From Porphyridium purpureum (lineage: Eukaryota), in assembly GCA_008690995.1 (NCBI GenBank), contig VRMN01000026.1:1-64000 (forward strand): DNA of 64,000 nt, written 5' to 3'. The notes under the pieces were generated by a model. That model saw only the letters and a list, made by a program, of their open reading frames with translations, searched no databases and had not been told where the DNA came from. Position numbers and translations under genes: made by a program. Each line of letters starts with the position of its first letter. Position 1 is the stretch's first letter. This document shows positions 4-25,369 of this stretch, piece after piece.

Positions 4-3000
4 TTAACTTTCAAGCCGCTTGAGCACTTCGGCACGGTCCGCGTCTGGTAAACCGCCTAGCAGCTCCGAGATTGATGCACGCACGGCGTCCAGTCGCACC
101 GGCGCAAGCAGCGCATCCAGGTTGGCACTGTTTTCGTCAAACCACTTCAGGAACGCGCGGTCATCGAGCCACACGGCATCGCCGCCCACGAGTGCGCGCA
201 TGACTTCTGTGGCGGCGAGCCAGTCGAGTGCTGCGTTGACTTTCGCGACGTGCTTGCGCAGCTCTAGTTCACGCAGACGGCGCTTTGTGCGCCAGAAAAA
301 GTACTCGCGGGAGCGCTTCCACTCGACAACGTCACGAATGACGCCCTTGGCCAGCATGCGACCCGAACGGTCGTGCAGATCGGCAAACTCGTGAGCAATC
401 TGGAGATAGATTGGCAGCAACAGATTTTCGCGCTTGCTGATAGCAGCCTTGATTTCTGCGCGATCCTTTTCTTCCGTAGCATTCTCAAGCCGCGCGTCAA
501 GCGAAAGCAGCTCAGTGTCCAGGCGATGCATCGCCTTCAGCTGATCGGGCGCGCGAAACTTGACCTCGCAGATGCCCGGCGGCTCCAAAATACCGCCCCG
601 GCTCTGCGTGTCCGCGTACATCTCCATCATCTTTTCATTAATGGTCGGGTCAACGACCACCCATGCACCGCCGCGAAGCTCCGCATTGGGTGGCAGATAG
701 ATCGAGACAGGCATATCATACTTGCGCAGCGCGTCCACAATCATGGCACCAAACTTGAGCACTTCACCAAACATGTCGCGCGTGCCGCCCGAGAAACCAC
801 GCCAGTTCGCAAAAATCATCAGCGGCAAATTCTCACCGCTGAAGTCTTCGATCGCCTGTGCCGTCTTGAAAGCAGAGTCTGGGTACCATACTTGCCCGGC
901 TTGAGGTTCAAGCGTCTCACGCGACGCCGCATTTGCTGGATCGGCCGGGATCACGCGATCAAAGGTGCGCGTTTCGACAGCAATCACTCCGTACGGAATC
1001 CCGCCAAGCCTGGCGCGGCCTACTACTACACTCCTACCCCAGCCAGCTAGGTATTCTTTGAAGCTGCCGGCGTCAAAGAAGCCACGCAACACCTTGCCAT
1101 CCGGCTGCACACTTCCACGCAACATATCACGCACATCGTACGTGGCCCCACCGCCTTTGGGCGGTACAAACTCGACATCGCGGCCGATTGGATCTGCAGG
1201 CGGTCCCGCAAGTATAGGCGGACTGCCGCGTGCTGTCGCCGGCACGTACGCGAGCCAGTCCAAGATCGCAATGACACCTTCCTGGTCGTTCTCGACGAGT
1301 TCGTGCGTCACGCCATTAGGCACCATGATTTGGGGCCCTCCAAGCTGATCCAGTGAAGAGTATACGTCACGCCCTAGAAGCTTGTTCAGCGCCTGGAAGC
1401 CAGTGAGAATGATCGGTCCATTCGTTTGCTGGATGGTGCGCTGGCCCAGTCTCACCAAATAAGCGCCGATGCCAACCGAACGCCCCGTCACGTAGCTCAG
1501 CGTGAAACTTTCGTCGTACGCACGACTAGTCTCTCCAGCGATGAGACCGGAACCCCTCAGGTTCTCGACGCCGATGCCATGTGCAGTGCCAATGATATCT
1601 TTGAGAACGTAACGCACTTCCTCCCCCTTTTCCCCAGAACCCGCGCACATGCGCCTTTCCGCGATGACTGTACCTTCAGGCAACTCATTGTAGTCCTTCT
1701 CTGACAAATACAAGTACTCGAAGCCAAGTGTTGGGTTCGACTCGTCGCGAAACTGCACTTTGAACATCGGTTTCAGCGACTCGACGAGGCCAATACGTGC
1801 ACCGCTGTTGCTCGACAGATAAATGCGCGGAATGCTACGCACACGGGCATACTCGGACGCTTTGAAAAAGAACTCGTCCTCAGCGACGCCAAACGATCCG
1901 GCCTGGAAGGTTACATCATTGGCAATAACCACGATCTCGCGACCAGATGGATATTCTGGTGTCTTGAGCGTGATGAGCCATGCGACCATACCAATCTCAT
2001 TCTGGCCCGGTGCGCGCTCCACAGGAGACAGCTCCTGCGTTTCTTTATCAAGCACAAGTTCGCGCGTCCTCATGAGCGATCCAAATTGTGGTGTGACGGG
2101 CGGGTTAGTCGAGCGCGTGCGAGCTCGCGACCACTGCTTCACGAGTGCAATTTCAAACAAGGCCATGAAATCGTAAGCGTACGTCGATCCGACGCGACGT
2201 GCCGCGCGGCGCTTGAGCTGCTCCGGTCCACTCTTCGTGTAGTACGGCCGCGACGCTGAAGCATTTAGCTGCTGTCCTTGCGCTATTTGCTGCTCCTCGT
2301 ACGGCACATACTGCTCTGTTACGCCAGTGATCGGGTTCTGAATCTCTGCAAAAGCATCGGTCTTAAAGAACGTCCGCTGTGATTGCGCACCCGCGTAACC
2401 GCCTGTCGGCGACGCCCAAAGACGCACTGCCTGCTGAACTTCATTTCCAGTGCTGTCCGCTTCGAATGGCACGCGTATCTTGAGCTCGATGTTTTCCACA
2501 CGCAGTCGGATCAGCCGTTCTGCGTACTTGACCATTAACGCTTCCATATCTGCTCGAAGGTGTCGAACCGTGTGCGCCGGAGGCAACTTTTTCGTGGGTC
2601 CGCCGGTCTGTTCAATGTACGCCGCCCCTTGGACAGGCTGCAATACGTTCAAAAACATGTTACAGGTCGCGGTGGGGTCTACACGCGGGTTCACGATGCC
2701 AGCGTCGAGTTGGTCCATGAGGATGAGCAGCACTTTTTCCATCACGCCAGGTACAGACATATCTGAGTGCGAAATACCTCGCAGAAAGAGGGACTGCGTG
2801 CGAGGCCGTGTGAGTGCCACTTCTTGGTCGCGCTTCTCGGTGCCCAGCCAAAGTTGAGCGTTTCGCAAGTAAATGGGTAGTCGTTGCAGTTCAAAGTTCT
2901 CACTCAGCCGGCTGAGCTCAAGCAAATAGGGGAAGGACGTGCGCATGTCACGTCGCAAGGCGTCTTCTGCATAGTTTTCGCAGAAGTTGAATGAGAACAT

Positions 3001-6000
3001 GCGCGGTGCTTTTGGCGCCTGGTTCACCAGCAAATTGACCGTGCGAACGCCGGCCTCGTTGCGAAGCTGGAGGTTACGCGCCTGCAACAAACCCTCCCAA
3101 CGCGAAATGAAGCCGCGCTCCTCTTCTGAGCCCTGAGGTAACGCACCAACCGGCCCGTTAAAGCTGATGATTAGCGTACCGATCGGCTCCTGCTCCTCCT
3201 CCTTCTTTTCCTTCGTCCACTCTGCCGCAAAGTCATCAATGATCGAAGGGAGCTTGTCTTGTGCGGTCGCCATCGAATCGCACGCCACCAGTCGCCCAAG
3301 CCGCATGGGCGAGCCCCGTACAATGTCTGCGTACGAAAACCGCCACGTTGCCACAATGCCGGAATCTGTGCGCTCGATGTTCAAAGCGTGGATAACATGC
3401 GCACGGTAAACGCGGCGAATGTACACTTCAAGTGCAGCGCGGGCGACTTGCGCGTCCATGTCCAGGAAGAGTGAGCAAAGGAGGTCGACCGACACACTCA
3501 GCGCACGCGACTTGGCAATCTCATCGAGTGCCGTAGAGTCGTTTCCCTTTGACATGATAAACTGGCGCACGTCTGCTAACCGCGAGTTGAAGTCTGGCGT
3601 GCGCAGTGCAGTCAGCAGCTGACCCGCTGCAACTACCACATCTCCATAGTTCTGGCTCTTCAGCTTCGTAAGAGCGGTCAAAGCGGCGTCGAGCTCCGGA
3701 GACAAAAGTGTGTCGTTCGGAAAGCGGTCCGGAAGCGTTCCTAGCTGGCGCAGAAGCGAGAGAACAAGCTCCGCGCGCCGCGGCAGTGTCAGGTGCGCTG
3801 CGATCATTTGGATTGCTGCCGCGTCGCTACCGGCGCTCTTCTTGATTGCCAAAATCGAATCATTGAGCGCGCGTCCGTCAAAATGTTCTTCGACGCGAAC
3901 AAATTCTTCGATGAGCGGCACGAGCCGAGAGATAATGTCGCATGCCGTGACTGGGTCTTCGATTGACTCTTCTGCTGAGCCAGCGTTTGAGTCCACCAAC
4001 TGCTGCAACGCCGGGCCAACGCTTCCTTGGAAACCGTCTAGGATCAGCCGGAGCTTGTACGCCGCGATATCCACCGCATAGCTGCCAGCGCCTGTGCCCG
4101 CCGCGCCCATGCCAAGAGCAAGGACGTCACGGCCTTCGGGTTTGCGAATGTTAAGGACACCATCAAAGTCAGACACAGGCGACGCCTTGGATGGGTCGTC
4201 GAGATCAAGCCGCGCAAGCAGGTCACCTGTCTTGATGATGGAGCCGGCGGCAAGCTCGTGGCGCAGCATGCCGGTCTCGCCTGCTGAGAGCTGCATAATC
4301 ATCTTCATGGCCTCGAGCTCCACGTAAGGCTCGCCCTTCTTCACCGCATCACCATCCTGTTTGAGAAAGCGCACCACCTTGCCCGTTACGTCGCTGCGCA
4401 ATTCAGATGGGTCAAAGATCGTCGGAATCATTACGGTGCTCCCATTGATAATCATGCGCAATCCGAGGGGCTCCTCTACGCCAGAAACTGAATACACATT
4501 CTCACCCATGGTGCACAGTAGGCTCTGGTCCGGCTGCTCACGCACTTTGACGTCTAGCGACCACGTGCTCATCGAGCTTCCAGCTTTTGCCGCGGCCCCA
4601 CTTGCAGAGCTTCCACTCGCGCTATCAAGCAAATTCAGGCGGAGCACGTCTGGCGCCAATCGGCCCACCTCAAAAGTGAAGCGGAGGCCCATGTAGGTGA
4701 TTTCGACGCTAAACTTGTTCAGAGCGTTCAACTCGGACACGAACGTGCTCTGACCACGCGCAAGCTGCTCAAGGCATGCGAGTTTGCCGCGTTTGATGGT
4801 GTCATGGGCGCGATACACAGCTGCAGCAAGAACGGCAGTGTCGCGATCCAGCTCAAATTTGACCGACTTTTCGCGGATCAGACGATCAAGCCATGAGGTA
4901 TCGATAGTATTCTGCTTGAATTCATCAGTCTCAAGCAGTTGCACCAAGTATTCGACCGGATTGCGAATCTCGCCGCGCGCTTCAAGCTCCTTGAGTGCCA
5001 GCACCAATGCCTTGCGCGCATCCTCACGGTTTGCGCCGCTGGCAAAAACATGCCCAAACTGCGAATCGGCAAACTCGTGAATCCCACCCTGCGCACCGAC
5101 TGAAAAGTAGCCCCAGACGTCCGGACTGCTCTGAAATCGCACGCGCTCCACACGACCGCTCGTTGGCTTGAATCCTTCGTCCGGGTTTTCGGCGGTGATG
5201 CGAGCTGCGATGACGTGGCTGCGAAGCGGCTGGTACATTTCGGTCATAAAGTCGATCGGCGAGTCGCCGTATGCATCTGTGCCATCACGTCCGTACAGTC
5301 GTCGGATATCGGGCACGCGCGATAGTGCAATGCCCATCGCTACCTGCAGCTGCGTGGCGGGCATGTTCACGCGTGTGAGGCCCTCCGTCACTGGATGCTC
5401 GACCTGAAGCCGCGGGTTGAGCTCGAGGAAGAAAAACTTTTGCGTGTCCGCATTGTACAGGTACTCCACGGTTCCGGCTCCGCGGTAGCCGATCGATTGC
5501 GTTAAGCGCTGCGCTGCGCGCTCCATTTCCCGGAAGACCGAAGGCTCCACGATAACGGGCGGTCCCTCTTCGAATATTTTTTGAAAGCGGCGCTGCGTGG
5601 AGCAGTCGCGCCCGTTCAGCGCTACCGCGTTGCCGTACTCATCTCCTACGATCTGGACCTCAATGTGTCTCGCGTTCTTGCACAACTGCATCATGAAGAT
5701 CGGACTCCCGGGTACTTCATTTACCACTTGTTCATAATTCGAGCGCAGCTCTGTTTCGTTCGCAGACATGCGAATGCCCTTGCCACCGCCGCCTTCGGAC
5801 GCCTTTGTCATGATCGGGTAGCCGATGCGCTCGGCCACTGCGATCGCCTCGTCAACGTTGTGCACCATCGCTTGCTCAAATATCTCACGCGGGATCGTGC
5901 CGTCCTCTGACAGCTCTGCCGTCAGTCCATCGCCCGACCACGGGATGCTGGGCACGTTGGCCGTTTGTGCCAAAATGTTCGCGCCAATCTTGTCGCCCAG

Positions 6001-6689
6001 CACGGCCATGACGGGACCCGTCGGCCCGATGAACTGGATGCCCAGCTTGGCGAGTGAATTAGGCAATCGAGGGTTCTCAGATGCGTGGCCCCAGCCCGGC
6101 CACACTGCGTCGACGCCCTCGCGCTTCGCCATCGCACAGATCAACTCCACGTTGGCATAGTTGTTACGGTTTGGGCCGCCGGGTACCTCCACAAAAGAAT
6201 CTGCGAGGCGCACAAACTCGGCGTTGGCGTTGAGATCCTCTGGTGTGGCCATCGCAACAAATTCAATCGCTCGCTCCGAGCCTATTTCATAGTACGCCCA
6301 CTTGCGCATGGACAGAATGGCCTTGGTGGCCGCCATGCCGTTGTTCGCGATCAGCACTTTCCGAATGACGCGCTTGCCGCCGCGAGCGTCCACGTACTCC
6401 TGGAGCTGCTTCAGGTTTGTCTGATTCCGCGGCGACGCCGGCGGCGACGCCGATGCCGGTTTTTCCTTCCACGCTAGCAAGCTCATGCGTAACACTCTGG
6501 CGCCGCGCCCGCACGCCCGCCGGCTGATTGCTGCTGGTCCTCGCGCGCTTTCATCCGCTCCACTGGTTTGCGTGAACGACGTGGTTGCTCCGCCACGCCT
6601 TTCATCCATCGCGCAAGCGTCTGAGCGCCGCCGCCGCGGCGCGCGCGCACATGCGCTTGCAAGGGCGGCTGGAACTGAAACGCCAGCAT
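4..6689 (-). CDS. ACC: Homomeric (multidomain) acetyl-CoA carboxylase, probably plastid-targeted; true start uncertain (in-frame ATG at 6609 or 6486, or ATG 6689 if one base is missing at 6678-6680)
   Basis: Biotin carboxylase motifs (KVLIANNGMAATK, WPGWGHASEN, KASEGGGGKGIR, ELNPRLQVEHP), biotin attachment EAMKM, carboxyltransferase motifs (GVENLRGSG, NWRGFSGGTRDM, ELRGGAWVVVD); single uninterrupted ORF. Confidence 0.97.
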
Positions 6690-6796
6690 CGCCGCCGCAC
6701 CACCCTCCCTCCTCCTCATCATCATCTTCTCTCCATCCCCCCCTGTCGGCGGCATCATGCACCGTGGCCCGCACCCCACCTCCCACCACACACGCT

Positions 6797-6843: not shown

Positions 6844-7024
6844 CCGTGCTCTCTTGCCCTCTCGTCCCCATCTCTCACCCCACCCCCTTGCGTGAGACCC
6901 GCCTTATCACATCCACAAGCCGAAATCTCCATGTGTTCTGCTTTTGCGTTCTGTTTTCGCGTCGCGCCTCGAGCTCGATCAAGTACACTTGCATTCAAAC
7001 TGAACCTTCACATGGCACTTTTAT

Positions 7025-7322
7025 CGTGGAATATAGTCATCCCTCTCTGCCTGCCTGATGACGTGATGAGGAGTCATCAAATACTTAATGATGACAACTC
7101 TCCGTTGGTTGGTGACCGTAATGGTTAACCACAGTAGTATATCATTCGAGTGTGAGAGACGGCCGACGAGTCGGCGCTCTGTCTCCTTTGGAGGTAAGAG
7201 CTAGGTTGTGTTAAGGAGTAAAGTCGTCTTGTTGTGGACCTCTTGCTTCAGCTAGCCACCAGTAGTTTACTATTGGTACACGTTTGGTATACGCGTGCTT
7301 CACGAAGACGCTATCATCAAAG
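7025..7322 (+). repeat. 5' LTR of the Copia-order element (CG...AG termini)
   Basis: Direct repeat of 31101-31208 plus 36676-36865; identity ends exactly at the TSD and PBS boundaries. Confidence 0.93.
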
Positions 7323-7337
7323 GGTTATGAGCCCAGC
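7323..7337 (+). promoter_or_regulatory. Primer-binding site complementary to the anticodon stem-loop of initiator tRNA-Met (half-tRNA priming, as in Ty5 and copia)
   Basis: GGTTATGAGCCCAGC directly after the LTR. Confidence 0.88.
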
Positions 7338-7571
7338 CTTTGCGCTGCGGTGTTTCCCTCATCTTTCTTCTTCTTGCTTGCTTGACTAACCACCTATTGT
7401 GGTAGTGTTTCTATCATTCGGTCATTCCCCAACTCTACCCTCGATCACGCTTTGGAAAAGCGACTGTGGCAGCGCGACAGCCAAGACGCTGATCGGCGCC
7501 GCGAACATCGAGAAGGAAAAAAGAGGCGCTCGAAGCGCAACTGGTGAGCGCGACGCGCCCAGTGTTTGGTC

Positions 7572-10500
7572 ATGGAATATGACATGGATAGGGCTGCGGG
7601 TGCTAGTACCCCAGCAACACCGTCGCCGGCACGCGGTGGTGCAAACGCCTCGGCAACCCGCCTTGGCGCGGCAGCAAGTGCGCGGCGCGAGTCCGCGCGC
7701 GAGGAAACGAAACGAGAGATGGCGGCGATGCTGAATGCGGCATACGCCCAAATGCATCGCCAACTCTCGGAGGAATTCGGCGCCAAGATGGCGACCGAAC
7801 TGAATACCCGGACGGCGATTGTTCAGAGTGAGCTCGCCGAGCTGCGGAGCGAGAACGTTCGTCTGAGGGCGCTTCGCGATGGATCCGGTGGAAGTGGCGC
7901 TTTGCCGAGCTGCATGCGCCCTGCGGCCATGCTGTACTATGGCGGCGAGCGATCCACTGCGGCCATTATGACCTGGACGGCAGCAGCGCGTTCGCGGGTG
8001 TACAACCCGGCGCGCTCGGATTGGCGGTCGCAGGGCCGTCTTTGGACGGAAACCGAGGAAGAGGAAGCAGTGTCGACGCTTTCGACTCACCTCTTCGGAT
8101 TGGCGCAACTCTGGTACCAGGCATTACAACCTGATCAGAGACCCACCTCGGTAGAAGAGTTTCTGCTCGCGCTTCAGCGGCGCTTCGAGCCAAAAGAAAC
8201 AGAAAATGACGTGCGGGATGAACTGCAAAAGATGAAGCAGGGTGCAATGAGTGTCCAAGATTTTGAAGCTGCATTTAGTGAAGTTTGTCTGCGTATACCA
8301 AATTTGGTAGACAAAGATAAACTTCACTATTTTACAGAATCTCTTGACACTTCTATTGCCACTCACGTAGCGCTTCACTTCCCTCCCACCTATGACGACG
8401 CTTTGCGTTTGGCTTTAGTTGCCGACAAAGTCATATTTAAGCGTGGTCGAGACCAGCAGCCCATCACAGCACGCACGTACCCGTCAGCCATGCAGCCTGC
8501 ATACCACCCCCAGATGAACTATAACCAGCATGGTCCGGTGCCAATGGACTTGGGTACCGCCAGCGGCAGCAGCGCACGGGTGCACGGACGAGGATACAAC
8601 GACTTCCAGCGGGATCGCTCGAACGAGTATCAACAGCAACAGCATGACCAATGGTCACCAGCTGGACCGCAGCGGAACCTGCGTGCGAATCATGCAGAGC
8701 GGTACGCGCAGAGCCGCGCGGACGGACGAGACGGCGGCTGGCGAGAGCCGAGCACGCATGGTTGGAACCGTGGTGGCGGCCAGAACGACGCGCGTGGGCG
8801 CGGACAGAAGCGTGGCGCACCGCAACGAGGCGGTGCCAGTAGACCACGACCGCGACAGACGCCGAAGTCGCAACAAGATGGCAAGAAGAGTAATCAGCGT
8901 GGGCGCTATTACTGCCATCGGTGCTCCGTGTGGGGGCCAGCGACGCACAACTGTGCAGACAGGCGCGATGATCGCGATGCCAATCTCGGCGGAGCCGAGT
9001 TGATGACCGCCAGTGCGGGCAAAGGGTTGCTCAAGGTGAATGCTTGGGTGAACGGCCGGGCGATGAAAGCAGTCATCGATACCGGCGCAACGCACACCTT
9101 TCTGAGCGAGAGCGCATGCGCGATGGTGCGAGTGCGCACAAATAGCACCGCGAATGCCTTGACCATTCGATTGGCAGACGGCACGCAGTGCATGTCTCGC
9201 GGGCGCGCGACAGTGAATCTGGCGGTGCTGGATTCAGCAGAGAAGCAGCAGGACGTGGTTGTGTACAATGGCCACAATGACCTCGTGATCGGTCTCGATT
9301 GGCTTCGAACCAACCGCTTCGAAATGATCATCGGCGGTCACAGTCTTGGCACAGCCGAGGCTGAGCATGTAGAGCAGGACCATTGCGTTCTGCACATGCC
9401 GTCGCGCGACACGTGCGGAATATGCAGCGCGGCAAAGCTGCGGCGCGCGCGTGCTGTGAGGCGAGACGACTCGGTTGGCAAAGAGCGCGGACGAGCGCGC
9501 GAGTTCAACGACGTGGTGTCGATTGACATTGTGGATCCCGGACTGGCAGCCGTGGATGGCAGCAGGTGGCTGCTCACTCACCTCGACGAAGCCACTGGGT
9601 GGTTCTCAGCAATTGGGCTGGCGGACAAGTCCGCCGCTGAGTGCATTCGCGGGTTGACGGAGCTGCAGCGCGGACGTGGTGATTGGCCACGAGTGTTGCG
9701 GTGTGACGAGGGCCGCGAGTTCATGGGCGAATTCGACGGATTCATCGCGGAAAAGGGCGTGAAGAAAGTCACTGGTGTACCTTACCGGGCGAACACGCAC
9801 GCGACGCATGAACGCAAGCATGCAGACTTGAACGGAGCAGTGCGAGCACTGCTGATGCAGTCTGGCTTGCCGACCGCGTGGTATCCGTTCGCCGCCGCCT
9901 ACTTTTGCCTGGCCAGAAACCTCGCCTGGCGCGGCGCAAAGCAGGAGCAGACCAGCTTCGAGCAACGGCTCGGTCTAACATGGCACAAGCCCATCCCTGC
10001 ATTCGGGAGCGGCATTCTCATATACGATGAGAGCCGCGGCAAATTTGAGCCGAAAGGCTTGCCTGCAATCGTCGTTGGGTTCACGGCACCGAGGCCGAAT
10101 GACCCGCGGCAGCCCATAAACCTGCTCGCCCTGCCCATTGCCGACTTGCGGCCATCTGCGATCAGGAAGGTCGGCGAATGGAAGCCACTTCCCGACAAGT
10201 GGCCATTGCGACGTTTGGCACTGCGGCCTCCGGATGAGGCCATTACGACGGGTGATCAATGGTCGCGAGCACGCGACAATGCACCGGACCGTGCATTCTG
10301 CACACAGTGCAAGAAAATAGTCGGTGGGAGCACCGAATGCGAGAAATGCATTTTGGGTCCGGCGCCCAGCCGACGTCACACTGGTGACGGCGCATGCAGG
10401 CAAATGCACTGCCAGTGCTACCGAGACGAGCACGGAAAGCTCGCGTCACGAGCACAGTATCGGCGCATTGAGCTGCCGTGGAGTCCGGCCGAGGACATTG

Positions 10501-12395
10501 CCATATCCGAAGGCATTGCCCGTTTTGGTGAGGACTGGCTTGCCATCGCGGGTAGGCCAGCATTCTTCATGCGCGGCCGCAAACCAGCCGGCTTACGCGC
10601 GCGCGCAGCGGAACTGGGTGTGCTTCCAGTGCACGCAGCAGCAGCGAGCGACGCGACGCGGAACGACGCGACGCGAGCAGAGAGTAGCAGCGACGCAATG
10701 TATACAAGCGCGGCGACAGGGGGACCAGAGGACGAAGCGGCAGGTCTGGGGGTGGCAGAAGTTGTGGCCACAGCGGTGGCGATGGCCACGCCCGCCGGCC
10801 GCCATGCATTAGCATCCGAGCTTCGTGCGCTCACCAGCACCGGCGCTCTGCCTTTCCGCCGCACGATGGACAAGGCAGTGGCGGCGCGCGTTCCGAACGC
10901 GCAATTCGTTAAGTTGAAGCTCCTCTTCAACAAGAAGAATTCAGAAATGCCTTCGTCGTTCCACAAGACGAAGTGCCGCATCGTCGCGCAAGGATGCGTC
11001 GTGCTGGACGCCGATGGGCGTCGCGCGCGCGAAGAACCGTACCCTTTTGATCGCCCACCAGGTTTGCTGGCGATCCGCGCCTCGATGAGCATGGCGCTCA
11101 TGCTCCATGGACCATCCGCCGACGGCGCCTTCTTCGACGTAACGTGTGCCTACCCCAGTGCACCATTGGGCGGCCGTCCGACATTCGGATATCTGCGCGA
11201 CTTGGTCCCGGTCGTGAAGGGTCTAGTCAGCGAAGCCGACTACAGAAAGATGGCCGCATGCAGCGAGCCTGTCGTGGAGCTACCGCAGGCTCTGTACGGA
11301 ATGAAAAGGAGCGGCAGCGACTTCAGCCACGACGCTCGCGAGCGTGTCCGGCGGCTTGGATGGCAAGAATCCAACGCGGACAAGAACCAGTACTGGCGCC
11401 GCGACGCGAACGGCAGCATGCTCACGCTGAGCATGTACGTCGACGATGGCGCACTCTTCGGCAATGCGGATGCGGTACGAGTGGCGGTCAAACAACTGAA
11501 GACCGTCTTCAGAATCGACCAGAAGGTCGAATACATTGCAGACTCGGCGCGTACGCGCCCTATCAAGTATCTCGGCATGCACATCTATCGCGACGGCGGC
11601 CGATGGATACTGGATTCGGGGGTGTACGCCACCCATGTGGCGAACGGCCACACCGCGGACAACTTGCGCGTGCGCAGCACGCCACTCAGCGAGCGGGTCG
11701 ACGACAATGGACCCGGCGGGCGCGCGTGCCCGACAAACAAGCGAACAGTGATTGGCCAACTGCTGTGGCTCAGCCGAACCACGCGAGCAGACATCGCTTA
11801 TGCCACGGCGCATGTGGCGCGTTATGTCGACCGGTGGGGGCCAAGCGCGGATCGCGCGCTCGACGAGATCGTCGGGTATCTGAAGAAGCATGCGGACGTC
11901 TGTCTGCAATACGACATACCCGCGACAGGAAGTCGCGACGTTCGGTTGCACGCGTGGGCTGATGCCGACTTCTCGGCACCGTCATCCACGAGCGGCGCCG
12001 TGCTCTTCATATCGAATGGCAGATGCCGACACCTTGTAGACTGGACCAGTCGGCGCCAGCGGCGCGTCAGCACCTCGACGACCGAGGCTGAGTTGGTAGC
12101 GCTGCACGACGCAGCGCAAGGCAGCGTGTTCCCAGTGGCGACACTGGCGGAAGAACTTTTGAGGCGCTGGCCTCCGATCGTTGTGCGGTGCGACAACGAG
12201 TCGACTTTGCGCGCGGTGGAGCGCGGCCACAGTGACCGGCTACTGCATGCGCCAAAGATGCAGCGCATCTCTCTGAGATGGTTGCACGAGATAGCAGCGG
12301 ACGGACTCGTCAAGTTCGTCTATGTCGCTACGCGCGACAACATCGCTGACGGCTTGACGAAGCCGATTGCCACCGACGTGTTTCGCGGCCATGCA
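7572..12395 (+). CDS. Gag-PR-IN-RT-RH polyprotein of the Copia-order element (5' part; continues at 30836-31060)
   Basis: Retrotrans_gag-like core with GPVPMDLG; protease VIDTGA (~9075); HX3HX7CX2C and DDE integrase (VSIDIVD, LRCDEGREF, HERKH); Copia RT (KCRIVAQG, QALYGMKRSG, MYVDDG at ~11433); Copia RNase H (WADADF, STTEAELVA, CDNES, NIADGLTKP). Confidence 0.95.
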
Positions 12396-12699
12396 TGTTA
12401 CCAATGCTGTGCCTTTATTCTCTCTCTCTTCTTCTTCTTTCTTACCTCTTCTGTCTCCGAGCAAGACCTGACCGGCTAGCCCGGGCAGGCGCGTCGCCTT
12501 TTTATACCCTTACTTCCGCCAGGGACAGCAAGGCGCCAAGAGAAATGACAATGCAAATCATTGGCATTTCTGCGCACGTCTAGAAGTTTCCGGAACCTCT
12601 AGAAGCTTCTAGAAACGGTTAAACGGTCTACCGGTTTAACGGCTTACCGGTTTCGGATTAACCGAACCGTTCTAGGTGACTGGGGTCGAACGGATAACA
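12396..12699 (-). repeat. 3' LTR of Gypsy A1
   Basis: Repeat of 30527-30830, 31209-31501 and 36373-36670; TATAAAAA on the minus strand at ~12506-12499. Confidence 0.95.
12582..12615. promoter_or_regulatory. Two tandem heat-shock elements (nGAAnnTTCnnGAAn) in U3 of the family A LTR, present in all four LTR copies
   Basis: aGAAgtTTCcgGAAc and aGAAgcTTCtaGAAa, about 75-110 bp upstream of the minus-strand TATA box. Confidence 0.75.
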
Positions 12700-12818
12700 T
12701 CTCCCCCCCTCTTGGCTCGACGTCTCGGCGAGACTCCAAACTAAGTTGCATTCTTGGCTCGAGGAACCCGCGCTCCGGGAGAAAACCTCTGCCTAGCAAA
12801 CTTCTCACAATTCCCAAG

Positions 12819-13281
12819 TCATTCAGAGTCAGACTCCTCGATAATTTTCAACAAGTCTGGCTCAGAATCGGACGCCGGCATTTCGTCGGGTACTTCTTCA
12901 TCATTTTCCCCTACCATGTAGTCTTCGCGTCCATAGTATGGCTTCAGATGCTGGGTCGGAAAAACATCATGACAAGCCACACCCTCGGGCAAAATCACTC
13001 GGTAAGCATGCGAGCTTACCTTCTCAATGACAGGCACCGGACCAAGAAACTTTGGTGCCGCCAAATCACTCTTGTTCGGCCGCAGTTGCGGCGCTGTGAC
13101 CAACACTTGATCACCAACTTGAAACTCCCGGGCATCCTTGCGTCGATCGAAGAACTTCTGCATTCTCCCTTGGGCTTCGATCAAATTGTCGCGGACTTCT
13201 TCATGGACTTTGCACAGGCGAAACCAGTGCTCCGCCACGTCCTTCGTCTGCCCGTCGCGCGCAGGCCTCCACCCTTCGCTC
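12819..13281 (-). CDS. C-terminal fragment of Gypsy A1 pol (integrase C-terminus), separated from the rest by the element B insertion
   Basis: Matches the C-terminus of the intact A2 pol (SEGWRPARDG...KIIEESDSE); 29267-26239 plus 13281-12819 gives 1164 codons, the same as A2. Confidence 0.92.
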
Positions 13282-13285
13282 GGTG

Positions 13286-13565
13286 TGCTATGCTGTACAC
13301 CCCATGCACTGTACACATGTAGCACCTGTACTCCATAGTACAGTCCACCCTCCAAAACCCCATCCAAACCCACCACTGAGTTAGATCCAGGGCTTTGCGG
13401 CAGTATATAATCCACGCCGCCGTGCGGCCCGAGCTAAACAAAAAGTAAAGGAGGTATCGAAGTGCGAGGAGAGGTTGGTGTGCCGTTGGTGTCGGGGTTC
13501 GATCCGGGCGGGTGCCTGTAGGTGAGAGAGAGGGGTTGTAGTGGCTGCGGGTGTAGTACACAGCA
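13286..13565 (+). repeat. 5' LTR of Gypsy B
   Basis: Repeat of 25959-26238; GTAC cluster in U3 and TATATAA at ~13404. Confidence 0.95.
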
Positions 13566-13706
13566 TAATTCTAGAATTAGCGTTGCCCCATTCTTGAGTA
13601 ATTTCTTGTGGGAGCGCGCGGGCCGGTCTGGTTGGTGGTCGGGTGGCCCGGAACCAGGGCGACGTGGGGGAGAGGTGCCAGGTCGGGTGGCTCTGGTGTC
13701 TCGTTT

Positions 13707-13998
13707 TGTCACAAACGGAGCTTCTTTTCTTTACTTCTTCTTCTCTCCTCCTCTACCTCCTCTCTTCTTTCTAGCCTTTTTTCTTCGTTCGGCTGCCGCT
13801 CGCTCTGTTTTATACCCGCCTTCCGGCGCCGCAACGGCTTGCCCGGCGGGTTCAGCCCTCGGAATAACCCAATCCCGCGGCCCTCAACATAACTCAGCTG
13901 TACCACACGGTACACCCACAGCTGTACTTTCAGTACACTTAGGGACTGTACCTCTGCGTACTCGCTGTACTGAGACCTGCATCAGGTCGCTCGCGACA
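13707..13998 (-). repeat. 3' LTR of Gypsy C
   Basis: Repeat of 19643-19934. Confidence 0.95.
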
Positions 13999-14526
13999 TC
14001 CCACACTTCCCGCTTATCCACAGCGACCATTGCGATAGCGTGTTCTAAGCCCACGCGCCGCATGCATAGCAGCCGTTCCCGTGCCGCTCAACAGGTTCAA
14101 GCACAATGAGCTGAGATCGAGCGGACGAAGTACAGTGTAAGCTGACAGGGTACAGTGCCAGCAACAGGGCCAAAAAAATAAGGTGGCCGGTGCCGCTCAC
14201 AAGTGACGCCCACTGACAAGACCCCGTACAGGCTGCCATCCCCCTCCCCCGCTAACCTTAAAGGAAAGGTGCGCTGTTACGGCTCTGCCCAATGTCACCC
14301 CGGGGAATTACCCTAGCCACGGATCCCCAGCATTTCACAGGGGCAGTTTTCTCTAATCAGGGAGTGTCTAAGATCCTCTTCAATTCTCGTTTGCCAAACT
14401 GCCGAAATTTAGAGTATATACACCCCCAAATATGGACTCAGGTACAGTATTACTGTACTTCACTGTACACAGACTGTACTTCATTTTGTTCTTTATCATT
14501 CGTTCTACCGTCTTGCTGCGGGCACG

Positions 14527-14660
14527 GCTCCTTCTTTACCGTCCAGCCATGGACACAGCTCCTTCTTTAATGTCCAGCAACGGACACAGCTCCTTCTTTA
14601 TCGTCCAGCAACGGACCCAGCTCCTTCTTTACCGTCCAGCCACGGACACTCCATCTTTAT
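14527..14660. repeat. Tandem minisatellite, ~4.3 copies of a 31-bp unit (GCTCCTTCTTTAccGTCCAGCaAcGGACaCA), in the 3' UTR of Gypsy C
   Basis: Units start at 14527, 14558, 14589 and 14620 with no unique spacers. Confidence 0.9.
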
Positions 14661-14708
14661 TCGAACATTTTTTTTTTGAGAGCAGCGACGGCCGATAGCC
14701 ACCCAGCG

Positions 14709-17700
14709 TCAAACACCTTCTGCCATGTCTCGGTACGCGGCTACCAGCATGGGCGGGAGCGTCTTCTCAGCCTCCCATGTGTCGCCTCGCTTCCCCATAC
14801 CCCGCCATCTCACCTTGTACTCGCGGCCTCCACCCGCAGCCCGATCTTCCACAATTGCCTCCACCACCCAACTTGCATCTCCTCCAGCGAACACGTTCGT
14901 GCCGGCCATGTCTACCACGTCCGGGTCTGCCTTGTGCAAGCGGTTCACATGCACGAGCTGGCCATGGAGCTCTGCGTCATCTCGGCCGTTTGCGCTGACC
15001 ACGACTGCGTGAACCCCGTTCCGCTTTGTGATGCGGAAAGGTCCGAGCCACGGCTTTGTCAGCTTGCGACCCTGCCTCGTACTTGGGCACCACACGTATA
15101 CGATGTCGCCTTCGGCAAACGTTTCCTTGTTCCGATGAATGTTTCTGTCATAGTACCTTGCAAACCTCTCGGCGTTCTCCGACATCTTATTCCCGGCGAG
15201 CCGATAGGCGCGCGCCAGCTGTGCGGAGATATCTTGCGGTTGCTGGCCCCCTTCAACCGCTCGCGGTCCGGCCATGCTTGCCCAGTCCTTGGCTGGCGAC
15301 CCAAACATCATTTCGTACGGCGAGAAGCCGGTGGCTGCGTGGCGCGACGTGTTGTACGCGTAGGTTACAACGGACAGCCACCTATCCCAGTCGCGCGAGC
15401 TTGCACTGACGTACGCCGACAGCATCTTGCACAGGGTCGCATTGAAGCGCTCCACCCTTCCGTTCGTCTGCGGGTGGTAGGCTGTCGTCATGAGCCTCCG
15501 GATTCCGAGTCTGGCGCAAAGCGACGTGATCACCTCACCGACAAAGTTTGAGCCCCGGTCGGACAAGATGGACTCCGGCGGGCCAAAGACAGTCAACCAC
15601 GTCTGCAGGAAACTCCGCGCCACGGTCTCTGCCTTCTCGTCCGGGAGCGCCACGGCAACCGCCCATCGCGTCCAAGCATCCATCATGACGAGCACCTTGA
15701 TATTTCCCGTTCGCGTCTCCGGACTGATGGTGAGGATGTCCATGCCTACAATTTCAAAGCGTCTGGACGCCGAGTACTGCACCATCGCCGCGTTCCGGCG
15801 GGGTGGTGGTGCCTTGCGCGCTATGCACTCGTGGCAGCACCGAACGAACTTCCGAACGTCTTCTGTCCACCCGGGCCACCACCACTGCGCGTCGGCTATC
15901 CTCGCCGCCGTCCTCGCCGTCCCCATGTGAGCCGACAGCGGGGCTCCGTGATAGACATTCAGAACTGCCGACACAAGGGCGTCAGGGACCACCCGCCTGG
16001 GCATGTCTTTCAGCAACGCAAACACAATCCCGTCTTCGTCCACGATATACTCAGGGAAGGAGTACTTTGACGCGGGGCCTGATAGGTTCTTGAGCTCAGC
16101 GCAGATCTGCTCGTCCTCTGCGTACGCTGCTCTGAGCTCGTCGTCCGTGGGCACAGCGTATAGCGCCCCACTGTCTTGCGTGTCCCGTACCTCCCGGACC
16201 TCTTCTTCCGTGCCAGTGTCCAGAGGAGTACGCGATAGCGCATCGGCCACGATATTCGCTGCGCCTGGCTTGTGCTTCACGTCAAACTCGAAATCTTGCA
16301 CGCGCATGATCCACCTTGCCGTCCGACCCCGTGGCTCTTTCTGGCGAAGCAGCCACAGCAGCGCCGAGTGATCCGTCACGAGAATGAACTTCTTGCCGAA
16401 CAGATAGTGCCTGAACTTTTCCATGGATAGTATGGCACCCAAGCACTCTTGCTCCGTGACGCTGTAGTTCAGCTCTGCGCCTCGGAATGCCCTTGAGTAA
16501 AAGGCCACCGGGCGCCGCTGGTCCCCTTGAAGCAAGACCGCGCCAATGCCCACCTGGCTCGCGTCGACTTCAAGAACCATCTCGGCGGCCGGATTGAATG
16601 CAACCAGGACTGCGCTACCGTCGTCCATCGGATCACCTAGCGCATGGCGTAGGTCTATGAACGCGGCGCGCTGGTCGTCCCCGAATCTGCTCGCCCACTC
16701 TGCGCCACCAGCCGTCTTCCGGTGGAAGCCACCTTTCTTGTCCGTCAATCCGAGCCCAGTCAGCGCCCGCCTCAGCGGGAGGGCGCGCTCCTCGAAGTTC
16801 GGTATGAAGTTACGAAACCAGCCGACCAGTCCCAGGAACCGCTGCAGGTCCTTCGCTTCTTCTGGCTCTGGCCACTCCAGGATTGCCCGCGTCTTATCTA
16901 CCCCAGGCCGCAAACCTTGCGGGCCAATGCGATGGCCCAGAAACTGTACTTCTGCCAGAGCAATCTTGCACTTGCGGGCCGACAGTGTAAGCCCCGACGC
17001 CGCGAACCTTCGCAAGATCTGACGAAGTCCTTCCACATGTTCCTCGAAGGTCTCATGTCCCACTGTCAGATCGTCAATGTAGATCTGCGCGTGTGCATGG
17101 CGCATAGGGCCCAAAATCCGGTTGTTGAGTCGCTGGAAAGTTGGCGGACTATTGCAGCAGCCCTGCGGCAGACGCGTGTATTCAAATAGCCCCTCACGTG
17201 TGATCATGGCAGTCAAATGCATGCTTTCTGGCGCAAGGGGCACCTGGAAAAACCCGTCCTTGAGATCGAGAGCGCTCTTCCATCGGCGCCTCGAAAGCCA
17301 GTCGAGCATCTCCCCAACGTCTGGGATTGGGTACCTGTCCTTGATTGTGATTGCATTGAGCGGGCGAAAGTCGGTAGTCATCCGATACGATCCATCTGGT
17401 TTCCGGATCAGTACGTTGGCTGCTGCACACTCCGACGTGCTCGGCTGCAGCACTCCCTTAGCGACAAGGGCTTCGACCAGGCTGCGCTCGGCCTCGTTCT
17501 CGGCCTCTGAGCGCCTGCGCACTTTGGCCACCAGAGGGCGCTGGCCCGGTTCGACAGTGATGGTGTGTTCCACCAGGTCCGTCAATCCCATGGACGGCCT
17601 GAACAGCACCCACGCCTCAGCTAGGACGTCGCCGACTCGTTTGCGCTGCTCGGGCTCGAGATGCCCAAGCTCGATGGCCGCGGCGTTGCGCAGGGCTTCC

Positions 17701-18317
17701 TCTTTCTCGGCCGCGTGCTTCTGCTCCAGCTGGGCGATTCGACGATCAATCTCGCCCGGTTCTTCAAGATGACCGATGTGTTCTGGGCCCGGCAGACCAC
17801 TCACTTGCTCGAACGGTAGAGAACCTCCACGCTTGAAGAACACAGCTTGACCTGGCAGCACGGCCGCGACTTCTCGAACCTGGAAGTCCCAGCCGATCAA
17901 GAGATCTGTCTTGAGGTGTTCCGCCACTCGGACCGTCTCGCACGGAAAAACGAAAGACCCGAGATGCAGATCCAGAAACCCAACGCTGACTCTGCCCAAG
18001 GAGGCGCCGTCCGGCCCTCGCGCTCCCCAACTTGACGGCTGCGTTTTCAAGCCGAGCCGGTCAGCCACGCTCGGGCTCACCCATGTTGAGTTTGCGCCCG
18101 TGTCCAGAACTGCCAGTGCAACCACTGCCTGGCCACATGCGGTGAGCTTCACCCGCAACGTCGGACTGTTGTCCGCACGCACGGCTAGCTCCGAGTCGCC
18201 GTCTTGTTCCTTGGCGTACGCCGCGCCTTGCAACTCTGCCTCACCTGAGGCATCGCCCGGCTCCCACCATTCCATGCAGGGGGCAGCTACTGCTTGCTGC
18301 CCCACTGCCCGTTTTTT
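14709..18317 (-). CDS. Gypsy C pol (PR-RT-RH-IN-chromodomain), entered by -1 frameshift from gag
   Basis: VLDTGA; YIDD; VDAS RNase H; HX6H...CX2C and DDE integrase; GPF; C-terminal chromodomain WVVEAIVEDR...EYKVRWRG...DTWE. Confidence 0.95.
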   Translation of the reverse strand, partial: KKRAVGQQAVAAPCMEWWEPGDASGEAELQGAAYAKEQDGDSELAVRADNSPTLRVKLTACGQAVVALAVLDTGANSTWVSPSVADRLGLKTQPSSWGARGPDGASLGRVSVGFLDLHLGSFVFPCETVRVAEHLKTDLLIGWDFQVREVAAVLPGQAVFFKRGGSLPFEQVSGLPGPEHIGHLEEPGEIDRRIAQLEQKHAAEKEEALRNAAAIELGHLEPEQRKRVGDVLAEAWVLFRPSMGLTDLVEHTITVEPGQRPLVAKVRRRSEAENEAERSLVEALVAKGVLQPSTSECAAANVLIRKPDGSYRMTTDFRPLNAITIKDRYPIPDVGEMLDWLSRRRWKSALDLKDGFFQVPLAPESMHLTAMITREGLFEYTRLPQGCCNSPPTFQRLNNRILGPMRHAHAQIYIDDLTVGHETFEEHVEGLRQILRRFAASGLTLSARKCKIALAEVQFLGHRIGPQGLRPGVDKTRAILEWPEPEEAKDLQRFLGLVGWFRNFIPNFEERALPLRRALTGLGLTDKKGGFHRKTAGGAEWASRFGDDQRAAFIDLRHALGDPMDDGSAVLVAFNPAAEMVLEVDASQVGIGAVLLQGDQRRPVAFYSRAFRGAELNYSVTEQECLGAILSMEKFRHYLFGKKFILVTDHSALLWLLRQKEPRGRTARWIMRVQDFEFDVKHKPGAANIVADALSRTPLDTGTEEEVREVRDTQDSGALYAVPTDDELRAAYAEDEQICAELKNLSGPASKYSFPEYIVDEDGIVFALLKDMPRRVVPDALVSAVLNVYHGAPLSAHMGTARTAARIADAQWWWPGWTEDVRKFVRCCHECIARKAPPPRRNAAMVQYSASRRFEIVGMDILTISPETRTGNIKVLVMMDAWTRWAVAVALPDEKAETVARSFLQTWLTVFGPPESILSDRGSNFVGEVITSLCARLGIRRLMTTAYHPQTNGRVERFNATLCKMLSAYVSASSRDWDRWLSVVTYAYNTSRHAATGFSPYEMMFGSPAKDWASMAGPRAVEGGQQPQDISAQLARAYRLAGNKMSENAERFARYYDRNIHRNKETFAEGDIVYVWCPSTRQGRKLTKPWLGPFRITKRNGVHAVVVSANGRDDAELHGQLVHVNRLHKADPDVVDMAGTNVFAGGDASWVVEAIVEDRAAGGGREYKVRWRGMGKRGDTWEAEKTLPPMLVAAYRDMAEGV

Positions 18318-19585
18318 GGTCCGTGGCTCAAGCCACCGTCCGAATACGGCGCGCGTGGTGCTCCACCTTGGCCCGCGGGGCGATGCACTCCCCCATCGGC
18401 CCTTGGCCATCCATTGCGGCAATCCCTCTTCAAGTGTCCAAGTTCGCCGCACTGCCAGCACTGCGGCTGTCCGGGCAGAGCAGTCGGAAGGGCTTGGCGC
18501 TTGGCCTGTGGCCCAAAGCTCTCAACCTGGTATACATCCTCTGCGTACAGGCCGTAGTCACGACCGCGCTTCTGGATCGTCGTGCCCGGGACCTCGCCTA
18601 TGCGGCCCACTCTCTCGCGGCCAAGCGGGCGTTGCTGGCCAAACGGAGGAAGCGAGCGACTCGGTAGACCCTTCAAACCATCTTCACCGACGTGGTCTAC
18701 CAGAGCTGAGCGCAGCTTGGTGAACGAGACGCTCACGCCGATCATGCGGACCGTGTTCTTCAAGAACGCGGAGTCCATGGCTTCGATCAACACGTCCTTC
18801 TTGTCCTCGTCGTCCATCTTGAGCCCGTCAGCCTTGGTCTCCAGGTCGTTCAGAAAGACACTCAAGCTGGCTTTCCCCGGTTGGAACTTCATGCGGCGGA
18901 GCTCGGCTTTCAAAGCCTGGCGGTGCTCGACATTGAAAAACATGGACTCCAGTGCCTTCCACACACGGTTCGCTGCGCCGGGCCCTGCCGCATCGACATC
19001 TTTGATCACGGCTTGGTACCTTGACACCGCGGGCCCACCAAAGCAAGCGCTGATGTGCTCCGCGACATTGTCCCTTGCGAGGCCAAGTGTGTCCGCGTGC
19101 GACTCCCAGCAGGTACGCGACGCGAAGAAATGAGCGTCACCTGGGGCCTTGATAAGAACTTGAGCACTGCGGACCGCCTCGCGAAAGGTTGCTGCGAGCT
19201 TCAACTGCTCCTCCCAGAACGACCGATCCGTGGTACGGCCCGAGGTCTGCGCCGAGTTGCGGCTGTGCGCCTGGGCCTCCAGTTCAGCAACGCGAGCGCG
19301 AAGGGCCATCACTTCGGCTCCGCCCGGTGCAGCTAGGTCTCCAACCGGGACAACGGACTCTGCGTCGGCTGCGGCTTCCAGGTGACCTGGCGTCCCCTGC
19401 TCATTGTCGACAGCTTCACCCTGGTGCTCCACGACAGGCCCGTCTTCTGGCGCTGGGCCCCCGGCACGAGCGGCCCCTGCTTCGATGATCGCGGATCCGC
19501 TGCGTGGCTCCCCAAGTCCTGCCACAACTGCTGCCTCGCGAGGCCCACCTGCCTCTCCAACTCCTGCCCCACGCCCACGCGCCAT
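18287..19585 (-). CDS. Gypsy C gag
   Basis: Capsid-like region and CCHC knuckle CWQCGELGHLKRDC; overlaps pol at the A_AAA_AAC heptamer (18317-18311). Confidence 0.88.
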   Translation of the reverse strand: MARGRGAGVGEAGGPREAAVVAGLGEPRSGSAIIEAGAARAGGPAPEDGPVVEHQGEAVDNEQGTPGHLEAAADAESVVPVGDLAAPGGAEVMALRARVAELEAQAHSRNSAQTSGRTTDRSFWEEQLKLAATFREAVRSAQVLIKAPGDAHFFASRTCWESHADTLGLARDNVAEHISACFGGPAVSRYQAVIKDVDAAGPGAANRVWKALESMFFNVEHRQALKAELRRMKFQPGKASLSVFLNDLETKADGLKMDDEDKKDVLIEAMDSAFLKNTVRMIGVSVSFTKLRSALVDHVGEDGLKGLPSRSLPPFGQQRPLGRERVGRIGEVPGTTIQKRGRDYGLYAEDVYQVESFGPQAKRQALPTALPGQPQCWQCGELGHLKRDCRNGWPRADGGVHRPAGQGGAPRAPYSDGGLSHGPKNGQWGSKQ

Positions 19586-19642
19586 CCTATCCCACTCCCA
19601 ACCCCACACTTCCTCGCTCCCACACGACCAATTTGCAAATTA

Positions 19643-19934
19643 TGTCACAAACGGAGCTTCTTTTCTTTACTTCTTCTTCTCTCCTCCTCTACCTACTCTC
19701 TTCTTCCTAGCCTTTTTTCTTCGTTCGGCTGCCGCTCGCTCTGTTTTATACCCGCCTTCCGGCGCCGCAACGGCTTGCCCGGCGGGTTCAGCCCTCGGAA
19801 TAACCCAATCCCGCGGCCCTCAACATAACTCAGCTGTACCACACGGTACACCCACAGCTGTACTTTCAGTACACTTAGGGACTGTACCTCTGCGTACTCG
19901 CTGTACTGAGACCTGCATCAGGTCGCTCGCGACA
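19643..19934 (-). repeat. 5' LTR of Gypsy C
   Basis: Repeat of 13707-13998. Confidence 0.95.
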
Positions 19935-20066
19935 GTTTGAAGTCGGGTGGCTTTGAAAAGATAGTTCTGTTTGGTTTTTGAACTTGCGTGGGAAGCCGGG
20001 TGGCTTCAGCACACGCATTGCACACTTTTGCGTTTGATTTCTAGGGACTGACTGATTATCTGATTT

Positions 20067-25076: not shown

Positions 25077-25173
25077 TCGGTCCGGGCCGCCGGCGTGTGG
25101 CAAGAGCCTCGGCCTCCTTTCGCGCTGCCTCTCTATCCTTCCCGACCTTCGACTGTGAGAAAGGCGGAGGCTC

Positions 25174-25369
25174 ATCCGTTTATCCGTTTATCCGTTTATC
25201 CGTTTATCCGTTTATCCGTTTATCCGTTTATCCGTTTATCCGTTTATCCGTTTATCCGTTTATCCGTTTATCCGTTTATCCGTTTATCCGTTTATCCGTT
25301 TATCCGTTTATCCGTTTATCCGTTTATCCGTATCGGCGTATCGGCGTATCGGCGTATCGGCGTATCGGC
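25174..25369. repeat. Octamer tandem array, (ATCCGTTT)~19.5 then (TATCGGCG)~5, in the 3' UTR of Gypsy B
   Basis: Directly visible. Confidence 0.95.

Follow-up and report, generated by a model that had tools for sequence, protein, structure and literature searches.

The stretch of Porphyridium purpureum DNA analysed here comprises 64,000 nucleotides (contig VRMN01000026.1, positions 1 to 64,000 of the forward strand; in the following, the window) and harbours, on the plus strand, a long terminal repeat (LTR) retrotransposon whose LTRs begin at 7025 and end at 36865. Its single Gag-Pol open reading frame (ORF, 7572–12395) comprises codons 1–1608 of 1682 and extends up to a nested Gypsy element, here termed Gypsy A. 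The frame as such is open from 7548 to 12479 and, read from the ATG at 7572, gives 1635 amino acids, the last 27 codons being Gypsy LTR sequence rather than the native tail; uninterrupted copies of the Gag-Pol protein have a full length of 1682 amino acids. By its pol enzymes the element belongs to Ty1/Copia, but it fails the Gag and protease markers of Copia. The initial annotation of the locus had read it as a Copia lineage in which a Gypsy capsid-protease module replaced the original one, and had suggested a scan with hidden Markov models. Such a Pfam scan of the ORF protein, with absence judged at E<=0.05, returned Retrotrans_gag/Ty3_capsid, gag-asp_proteas/RVP_2, rve and RVT_2 in this order: PF03732 at residues 171–258 (3.6e-12), PF19259 at residues 162–283 (1.2e-10), PF13975 at residues 490–579 (1.3e-10), PF08284 (1.3e-6), PF00665 at residues 646–739, and RVT_2 at residues 1231–1363 (E 4.2e-6, below the curated cut-off). 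Retrotran_gag_2 (PF14223), Pol_BBD (PF22936), gag_pre-integrs and RVT_1 were absent from the ORF at this threshold; the first three were present in four of four canonical Copia controls. The order protease (PR), integrase (IN), reverse transcriptase (RT), RNase H (RH) is that of Ty1/Copia, and the Gypsy order RT-RH-IN was not encountered.

All parts of the ORF lie on the plus strand. A long N-terminal Gag helix (residues 25–104, 7644–7883) is predicted by the AlphaFold2 model of the family member P0021. It is followed by a Ty3/Gypsy-type capsid with N- and C-terminal domains (7917–8555), assigned by PF03732, PF19259 and the HH profile, with a predicted capsid fold, and ending in PVPMDLG, and by an atypical zinc knuckle, C-x2-C-x7-H-x-C (8913–8954), whose spacing recurs in P0003, while P0031 has a canonical CCHC. 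The Gypsy-type aspartic protease (9027–9347; PF13975, PF08284) has its DTG active site at 9078 and an ILG-type motif, VIG, at 9285. The Copia-type integrase (9381–10130), assigned by PF00665, its tree position and its spacing, is characterized by a short HHCC motif (H-x3-H-x6-C-x2-C), D652, D712-35-E747 and GKFEPKG. The Gypsy/Copia junction would thus fall into the interval 9303–9380, between VIGLDW (9285–9302) and the HHCC (9381–9425), in agreement with the initial placement near 9330–9380. The Copia-type RT (10800–11950; RVT_2, trees) carries YVDD at 11436, and the Copia-type RNase H (11955–12365; sequence, trees) displays DADF, STTEAE, CDNES and ADGLTKP. The best Protein Data Bank (PDB) match of the family profile was the yeast integrase chain 7z0h_W (1.9e-9), of Ty1 origin. 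GC content at third codon positions is 0.54 in the capsid versus 0.70–0.74 in PR, IN, RT and RH, without a step at the junction.

A HMMER search with the IN-RT-RH block against 1.84 billion representative proteins identified Gypsy-type Gag and protease in P0003, P0031, P0048, P0065 and P0187, all from P. purpureum. P0197 of the same alga has a Gypsy-type protease in a record without Gag, and the metagenome proteins P0092/P0185 (JGI) and P0063 (ENA) carry a Gypsy-type protease ahead of the same integrase. The layout is hence a trait of a clade of several families, not a recent one-off. Since five of these families now share only 33–54% RT-RH identity, capture of the Gag-protease module would predate their divergence. 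By pol, the nearest relatives are protist and metagenome records of a Copia lineage with a short HHCC (P0039, P0182, P0053, P0064, P0086 and others), with the Cladocopium protein P0012 near its base. RT-RH identity to P0039 is 33–35%, the HHCC spacing is the same, and a similar Cys-rich stretch follows the integrase core. These sister elements differ in that their Gag is of Copia type (HH 97% to canonical Copia) and their proteases are of the LLS type. The integrase HHCC at 9381–9425 is very short-spaced and comes without a GAG-pre-integrase domain; because the sisters with Copia proteases have it too, the short HHCC is a trait of the lineage, and we rejected its interpretation as a scar of the junction.

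LLS is the Copia protease motif, ILG that of all other, non-Copia clan AA proteases (Llorens 2009, PMC2774666), and the GyDB marker table in its supplement lists ILG in 0/69 Ty1/Copia elements, 62 having LLS and 7 having lost the motif. The proteases of the clade carry I[LVI]G, other Copia rows mostly L[LF]S-type motifs. When scored against protease profiles built from 4 Gypsy, 18 sister-lineage and 20 canonical Copia sequences, all clade proteases (9/9) scored higher on the Gypsy profile than on either the sister or the canonical Copia profile. Profile-profile alignment (hhalign) gave 96.7% for clade/Gypsy, 86.2% for clade/canonical and 79.0% for clade/sister, versus 98.3% for sister/canonical, and in the protease tree the 9 clade and 4 Gypsy rows were joined at 98/95. 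For Gag, 5/5 clade sequences scored 39–94 bits on the Gypsy profile versus <=21 bits on either Copia profile, and hhalign gave 99.2% over 198 columns for clade/Gypsy, 25% for clade/sister and 97.2% over 244 columns for sister/canonical. In PDB searches, the profile of seven clade proteins matched the capsids of dArc and PEG10 as well as DDI1 proteases; with Gypsy A added to the profile, Ty3 Gag took the lead, and a Copia virus-like particle protein matched at the zinc knuckle only. The capsid as a single sequence retrieved only dArc1 (E 0.65). An Atlas search ranked Retrotrans_gag clusters first (0.93), although the 128–136 shared features lie under the guide value of 170; a further Atlas search, with residues 110–900, gave a mixed list that did not inform the assignment. 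The AlphaFold2 model of Gag (predicted local distance difference test score 72) shows a predicted two-domain capsid fold, for which Foldseek listed dArc first (1.9e-5) and the Copia capsid at 1.4e-2. The Gypsy type initially ascribed to Gag and protease was thus recovered by Pfam, profile scores, hhalign and the protease tree.

The enzymes downstream of the junction tell a different story. In the RT-RH tree (40 rows picked from the matches, 513 columns), all 5 rows with a Gypsy-type protease fell within a 15-row clade (100/99), amounting to one state change versus 17 Copia-protease rows, and two further RT-RH trees agree in outline with this clade. The integrase tree split 44 Copia rows from 4 Gypsy rows at 100/99. 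In the concatenated IN+RT+RH tree with the 4-row Gypsy root, the corresponding split (31 Copia versus 4 Gypsy rows) received 100/100, and the clade was nested in the short-HHCC Copia lineage (100/99, then 97/95). The Copia-type order IN-RT-RH and the Copia nature of RT and RNase H, as originally noted, are therefore confirmed by Pfam (RVT_2, no RVT_1) and by the trees. Because the clade nests among Copia elements with LLS proteases, these sequence comparisons support the view that the Gypsy Gag-protease state is derived, and with it the initial idea of a replacement. We consider it likely, with a probability of about 0.85, that the ancestor of the clade swapped its own Gag-protease module for one from a Gypsy element, the element in the window being a multi-copy Ty1/Copia element of P. 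purpureum that inserted here recently.

Several observations weigh against a swap in the clade ancestor. The Gypsy side of the comparison comprised only four references overall, and for 10 of the 15 members of the RT-RH clade the record contains no protease. Approximately unbiased (AU) tests stopped at the border: pulling the clade to the Gypsy root was short of rejection for IN (p 0.070) and not clearly rejected for IN+RT+RH (p 0.050), and holding clade and sister proteases together was not rejected either (p 0.065). In the integrase tree, P0185 with its Gypsy-type protease pairs with P0064, which has a Copia-type protease (94/88), a misfit to a single clean origin. The canonical Copia Gag profile still aligned with that of the clade at 86.9% over 96 columns. 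Finally, the fold predicted for the capsid does not discriminate between the superfamilies, as VIA of the model gave Z 13.8 for the PEG10 C-terminal domain (root mean square deviation 4.5, 90 aligned), Z 12.4 for the capsid of Drosophila Copia, next in rank (root mean square deviation 7.2, 159 aligned), and about 11 for dArc.

The borderline root test (p 0.050) also speaks for ancestral retention, according to which a Ty3-like Gag and an ILG protease are primitive and an early Copia branch never gained the Gag and the LLS protease typical of Copia. The best-named PDB matches of the protease, host DDI1 proteins, would fit this idea, as would the occurrence of ILG in all non-Copia clan AA proteases (PMC2774666). 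However, the clade is nested rather than basal in the IN and IN+RT+RH trees, and its Gags align by BLAST with those of Gypsy A and of the Gypsy polyprotein P0029, while the Gags of Gypsy B and C of the window gave no match, which places the clade Gags inside Gypsy diversity. Moreover, the capsids of P0187 and Gypsy A, at 42% identity, are too similar to have been separated since the ancient divergence of Copia and Gypsy. We thus regard ancestral retention as unlikely.

Which Gypsy element served as donor is a related issue. The initial annotation had aligned Gag and protease of the element with those of Gypsy A. The Gags can indeed be aligned (25% over 221 amino acids, E 1e-12); the relationship is, however, distant, with 27% identity in the capsid and 21% in the protease, and outside the LTR no DNA match to Gypsy A better than E 2 was found. 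Gypsy A was therefore rejected as the direct donor, and any reading of the chimera as made with its present neighbour is unsupported. Other members of the clade stand closer to Gypsy A: the P0187 capsid shares 42% identity with it versus 28–38% with its clade mates, and the P0197 protease 40% versus 24–33%. The capsid tree also joins P0187 with Gypsy A (87/86), and the clade proteases require 3 changes on the protease tree. Together with the repeated insertion of Gypsy A into copies of the family, this hints that Gag-protease modules were exchanged repeatedly between Gypsy A-like elements and the Porphyridium Copia clade, a scenario that would add to the ancestral swap rather than replace it. 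The same pattern would nevertheless arise if P0187 and P0197 had evolved slowly from one Gypsy A-like donor; monophyly of the clade capsids was not rejected (p-AU 0.084), and the direction of exchange cannot be read from 9 rows. We give repeated exchange close to even odds. A bolder formulation, to which we assign a slightly lower chance, would be that Copia and Gypsy elements of Porphyridium traded capsid-protease modules more than one time, that particle and enzyme modules are separable across superfamilies, and that a Gypsy-shelled clade dominates the Copia lineage in this alga and integrates with non-TG/CA ends.

With four Gypsy insertions nested at the locus, the chimeric layout might in principle be an artefact, be it a misassembly, which had been named at the outset as a result that would overturn the annotation, or a dead nested insertion that is in frame by chance. 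The Gag-Pol protein belongs to a cluster of 16 members; those with a named source are from P. purpureum. Of the 15 members listed, 13 have the protease and the integrase joined in a single frame and are 96.3–99.9% identical to the protein of the window, so that the further copies with the same junction called for initially do exist. In 5/8 sequencing runs, single contigs span the junction (X4, 8582–11131; X2, 9220–9833; X14, 9080–9542; X8, 7293–10528; X9, 8805–10609), which excludes misassembly as its source. Considering, in addition, the other families with the same layout, an artefact has a negligible probability. Expression of the element is only hinted at by RNA run X22, of which about 20% was read: 161 reads were placed on the element, with a depth <3 across Gag-PR-IN, and these were mostly first-mate on minus, a weak signal with no control for DNA contamination. 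Beyond the alga, metagenome locus searches yielded no relatives among 554 candidates and, in a second set, 1/172, a bacterial false match (L001); viral contig locus searches returned 0/2 and 0/82. A word-index search with Gag-PR residues 110–595 found only the element itself and P0029, and a Gag-alignment search gave no match among proteins of 2679–5000 amino acids, the only size range covered, and says nothing on distribution.

Outside its Gag-Pol frame, the element possesses LTRs, target-site duplication (TSD), primer-binding site (PBS) and polypurine tract (PPT) as is standard for Copia. The 5’ LTR (7025–7322, plus strand) was delimited by self-BLAST and boundary inspection; it measures 298 bp and has CG...AG termini, the TG...CA ends that are usual, if not universal, for Ty1/Copia being absent. 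It is preceded by the TSD TTTAT (7020–7024), whose identical right copy lies at 36866–36870. The PBS, GGTTATGAGCCC (7323–7337), directly adjoins the LTR end at 7322 and is of the half-tRNA type, as annotated initially, the tRNA presumably being tRNA-iMet: its reverse complement contains a CAT anticodon arm. Host tRNA genes were not found within the 64-kb window. On the distal side, the PPT (31083–31098) is followed by TG and the 3’ LTR, which is divided into its initial 108 bp (31101–31208; one mismatch to the 5’ LTR) and its final 190 bp (36676–36865; zero mismatches). The rejoined 3’ LTR and the 5’ LTR are identical at 297/298 positions. In 5/8 sequencing runs (X2, X4, X8, X15, X22), a loose end again coincides with the right LTR end at 7322; loose ends at 7023–7025 were seen as well. 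Since the left flanks at three distinct sites all have T before CGTGG, the LTR may extend one base further to the left than drawn. Inspection of the LTR ends (7020–7030, 7315–7325, 31095–31105, 36860–36870) also showed the PPT plus TG before the 3’ LTR and AAG past CA at the right end; the CG...AG termini possibly reflect an unusual processing of the ends by the integrase of this element.

The half-tRNA-type PBS bears on yet another explanation, in which the element is a Gypsy element with Copia-like domain order, as in Gmr1, or a Gypsy element that acquired a Copia pol block. Gmr1 indeed combines an ILG protease with an integrase located after the protease (PMC2774666 supplement), and acquisition of a Copia pol by a Gypsy element would need one crossover only. 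Yet Pfam and the trees both assign RT, RNase H and IN to Copia, which argues against a rearranged Gypsy, and the PBS differs from the TGGTATCA type of Gypsy A, indicating that the leader is Copia-like as well. We judge this origin improbable, even slightly more so than ancestral retention.

The copy in the window is young but damaged. Contrary to the initial view of an intact ORF, Gypsy A at 12396 cuts off 74 C-terminal codons. The insertion point lies directly past the RNase H motif ADGLTKP, and the insertion (12396–30830, minus strand, TSD ATGCA) contains two further Gypsy elements. The displaced final 74 codons and the stop codon follow at 30836–31060 on the plus strand, where a separate translation matches the C-terminus of the 1682-amino-acid copies, and contigs from runs X1 and X14 link 12395 to the LTR via 265 bases, representing the uninterrupted form. 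A second Gypsy A copy (31209–36670, minus strand, TSD ACCAC) splits the 3’ LTR, so that the near-identity of the LTRs claimed initially holds for their sequence, if not for their continuity. Likewise, the conclusion that the chimera was recently mobile is valid for the mobility of the family (LTRs 297/298, relatives at 96–99.9%), but not in the sense that the chimera itself is recent. Insertion of Gypsy A into this family is recurrent, with two cases in the window copy, while other runs show loose ends at positions 8151 and 10475. Overall, four young Gypsy insertions are nested in one Copia copy at 12396–36670, Gypsy A occurring twice. The third has its LTRs at 13284–13565/25957–26238 and the fourth near 13704–13998/19640–19934; two pol frames of the nested elements have chromodomains. 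A perfect 8-bp tandem repeat of about 20 ATCCGTTT units (25174–25331) is located near the 3’ end of a nested Gypsy element. The nest lies approximately 230 bp from the start of an acetyl-CoA carboxylase frame and is flanked by long uninterrupted host frames (window positions 4–6795 and 37460–62861), which encode, besides the carboxylase, a bromodomain protein, DXP reductoisomerase, a flavin oxidoreductase, a DEAH helicase, a DUF2009 protein and an ArsA ATPase.

Another observation of this study concerns two stretches between integrase and RT. A weakly Myb-like segment at 10476–10550 on the plus strand (PF00249, E 0.017; 3.3e-5 in the relative P0030), with similar W-spaced sequence in P0003, P0031 and P0043, could be a targeting domain. 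A Cys/His-rich stretch past the integrase core (10299–10420), which has no Pfam name and is kept in P0003, P0004, P0039, P0037, P0185 and P0187, is a possible extra zinc module of the lineage. Among the relatives, P0045 and P0047 have an RT-RH that falls inside the chimeric clade and an integrase grouped with canonical Copia, possibly due to a further module swap; P0033 and P0181, both from P. purpureum, contain IN-C-terminal domain/RT/RH blocks tandemly repeated in one frame, which may represent tandem arrays or assembly repeats.

A copia-like retrotransposon from Porphyra yezoensis reportedly encodes a gypsy-like integrase, going by the title of Peddigari et al. 2008 (J Mol Evol 66:72). Both that element and ours are red-algal Copia elements proposed to be Copia/Gypsy mosaics; there, by the title, the Gypsy-like part is the integrase, whereas here the integrase is of Copia type and Gag and protease are of Gypsy type. 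With half-tRNA-primed Ty1/Copia kinds, that is, Drosophila copia, yeast Ty5, Osser and Bryco (PMC5371799, PMC6317226; the former also gives background on half-tRNA priming), the element shares the order PR-IN-RT-RH, an RVT_2 RT, Copia RNase H and integrase, a single ORF, a 5-bp TSD and the half-tRNA-Met-type PBS. It differs from them in its Retrotrans_gag/Ty3_capsid Gag instead of Retrotran_gag_2, the ILG instead of LLS protease, the very short HHCC, the lack of a GAG-pre-integrase domain and the CG...AG LTR ends. The capsid and protease type, PM[DE]LG past the capsid and the ILG motif are features of Ty3/Gypsy (Gypsy A and chromovirus-like elements; Ty3 Gag, dArc, PEG10), unlike which the element has no Gypsy RT, RNase H, C-terminal integrase or full-tRNA PBS, nor the Gag/Pol frameshift of Gypsy A. 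With the Gmr1 clade it has in common an ILG protease directly before the integrase, but the Gmr1 enzymes are Gypsy while RT, RNase H and IN of the element are Copia.

Our literature search retrieved no description of a Copia element with a Gypsy Gag-protease layout, although Repbase reports and subscription papers, which lay outside the search, could hold one. The following statements refer to the accessible portions of the papers concerned. GalEa and PyRE1G1 have LLS proteases in GyDB, which records LLS or lost motifs for all GalEa, PyRE1G1 and CoDi elements (PMC2774666 supplement); the cross-family likenesses named there are Gmr1 and CoDi-A chromodomains (PMC2774666). The accounts of GalEa, CoPorcru and CoDi elements make no mention of a Gypsy Gag-protease (PMC3587641, PMC5445492, PMC2806351), and the GalEa PBS is TGGTAGCAGAGC, unlike that of the window element (PMC3587641). 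The plant survey of Neumann 2019 described half-tRNA priming as exclusive to Copia and reported recombination among Copia lineages; this REXdb survey discarded chimeric-looking elements as likely mispredictions and does not use the word Rhodophyta (PMC6317226). Muszewska 2011 speculated on an exchangeable protease (PMC3248453). In the P. purpureum genome paper, LTR elements account for 8%, and the words copia and gypsy are unused in the main text (PMC6811547). Nothing on a Copia layout with Gypsy Gag-protease was contained in PMC2836005, PMC5029228, PMC5776459 and PMC8282616.

We envisage that the element replicates as a normal Copia element, using half-tRNA-iMet priming and Copia enzymes for reverse transcription and integration. 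Its single Gag-Pol polyprotein would assemble a Ty3-type particle, and the Gypsy-type protease would cut the polyprotein to release capsid, integrase and RT-RH. As a protease is tuned to the cleavage sites of its own capsid, Gag and protease would have to be transferred together. Because the PBS upstream and the integrase downstream are Copia-type and Gypsy A has the usual TGGTATCA type PBS, two crossovers were probably involved, one within the leader, the other at the protease-integrase boundary. Such a recombinant may have arisen through template switching between elements packaged in one particle, or when a nested insertion on the same strand was followed by a deletion; the Gypsy A insertions in the window copy are on the strand opposite to the element.

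No division among LTR retrotransposons is deeper than that between Copia and Gypsy, and Gag and protease serve as superfamily markers. A successful clade that has diversified while combining Copia enzymes with the shell and protease of a Gypsy would mean that particle assembly and polyprotein processing are separable from reverse transcription and integration. It also calls for caution, as annotation pipelines drop such elements, as happened in the REXdb survey (PMC6317226). The clade may serve as a natural system for asking how a foreign protease came to recognize cleavage sites at IN and RT that were new to it, and how a half-tRNA primer is handled by a nucleocapsid of Ty3 type.

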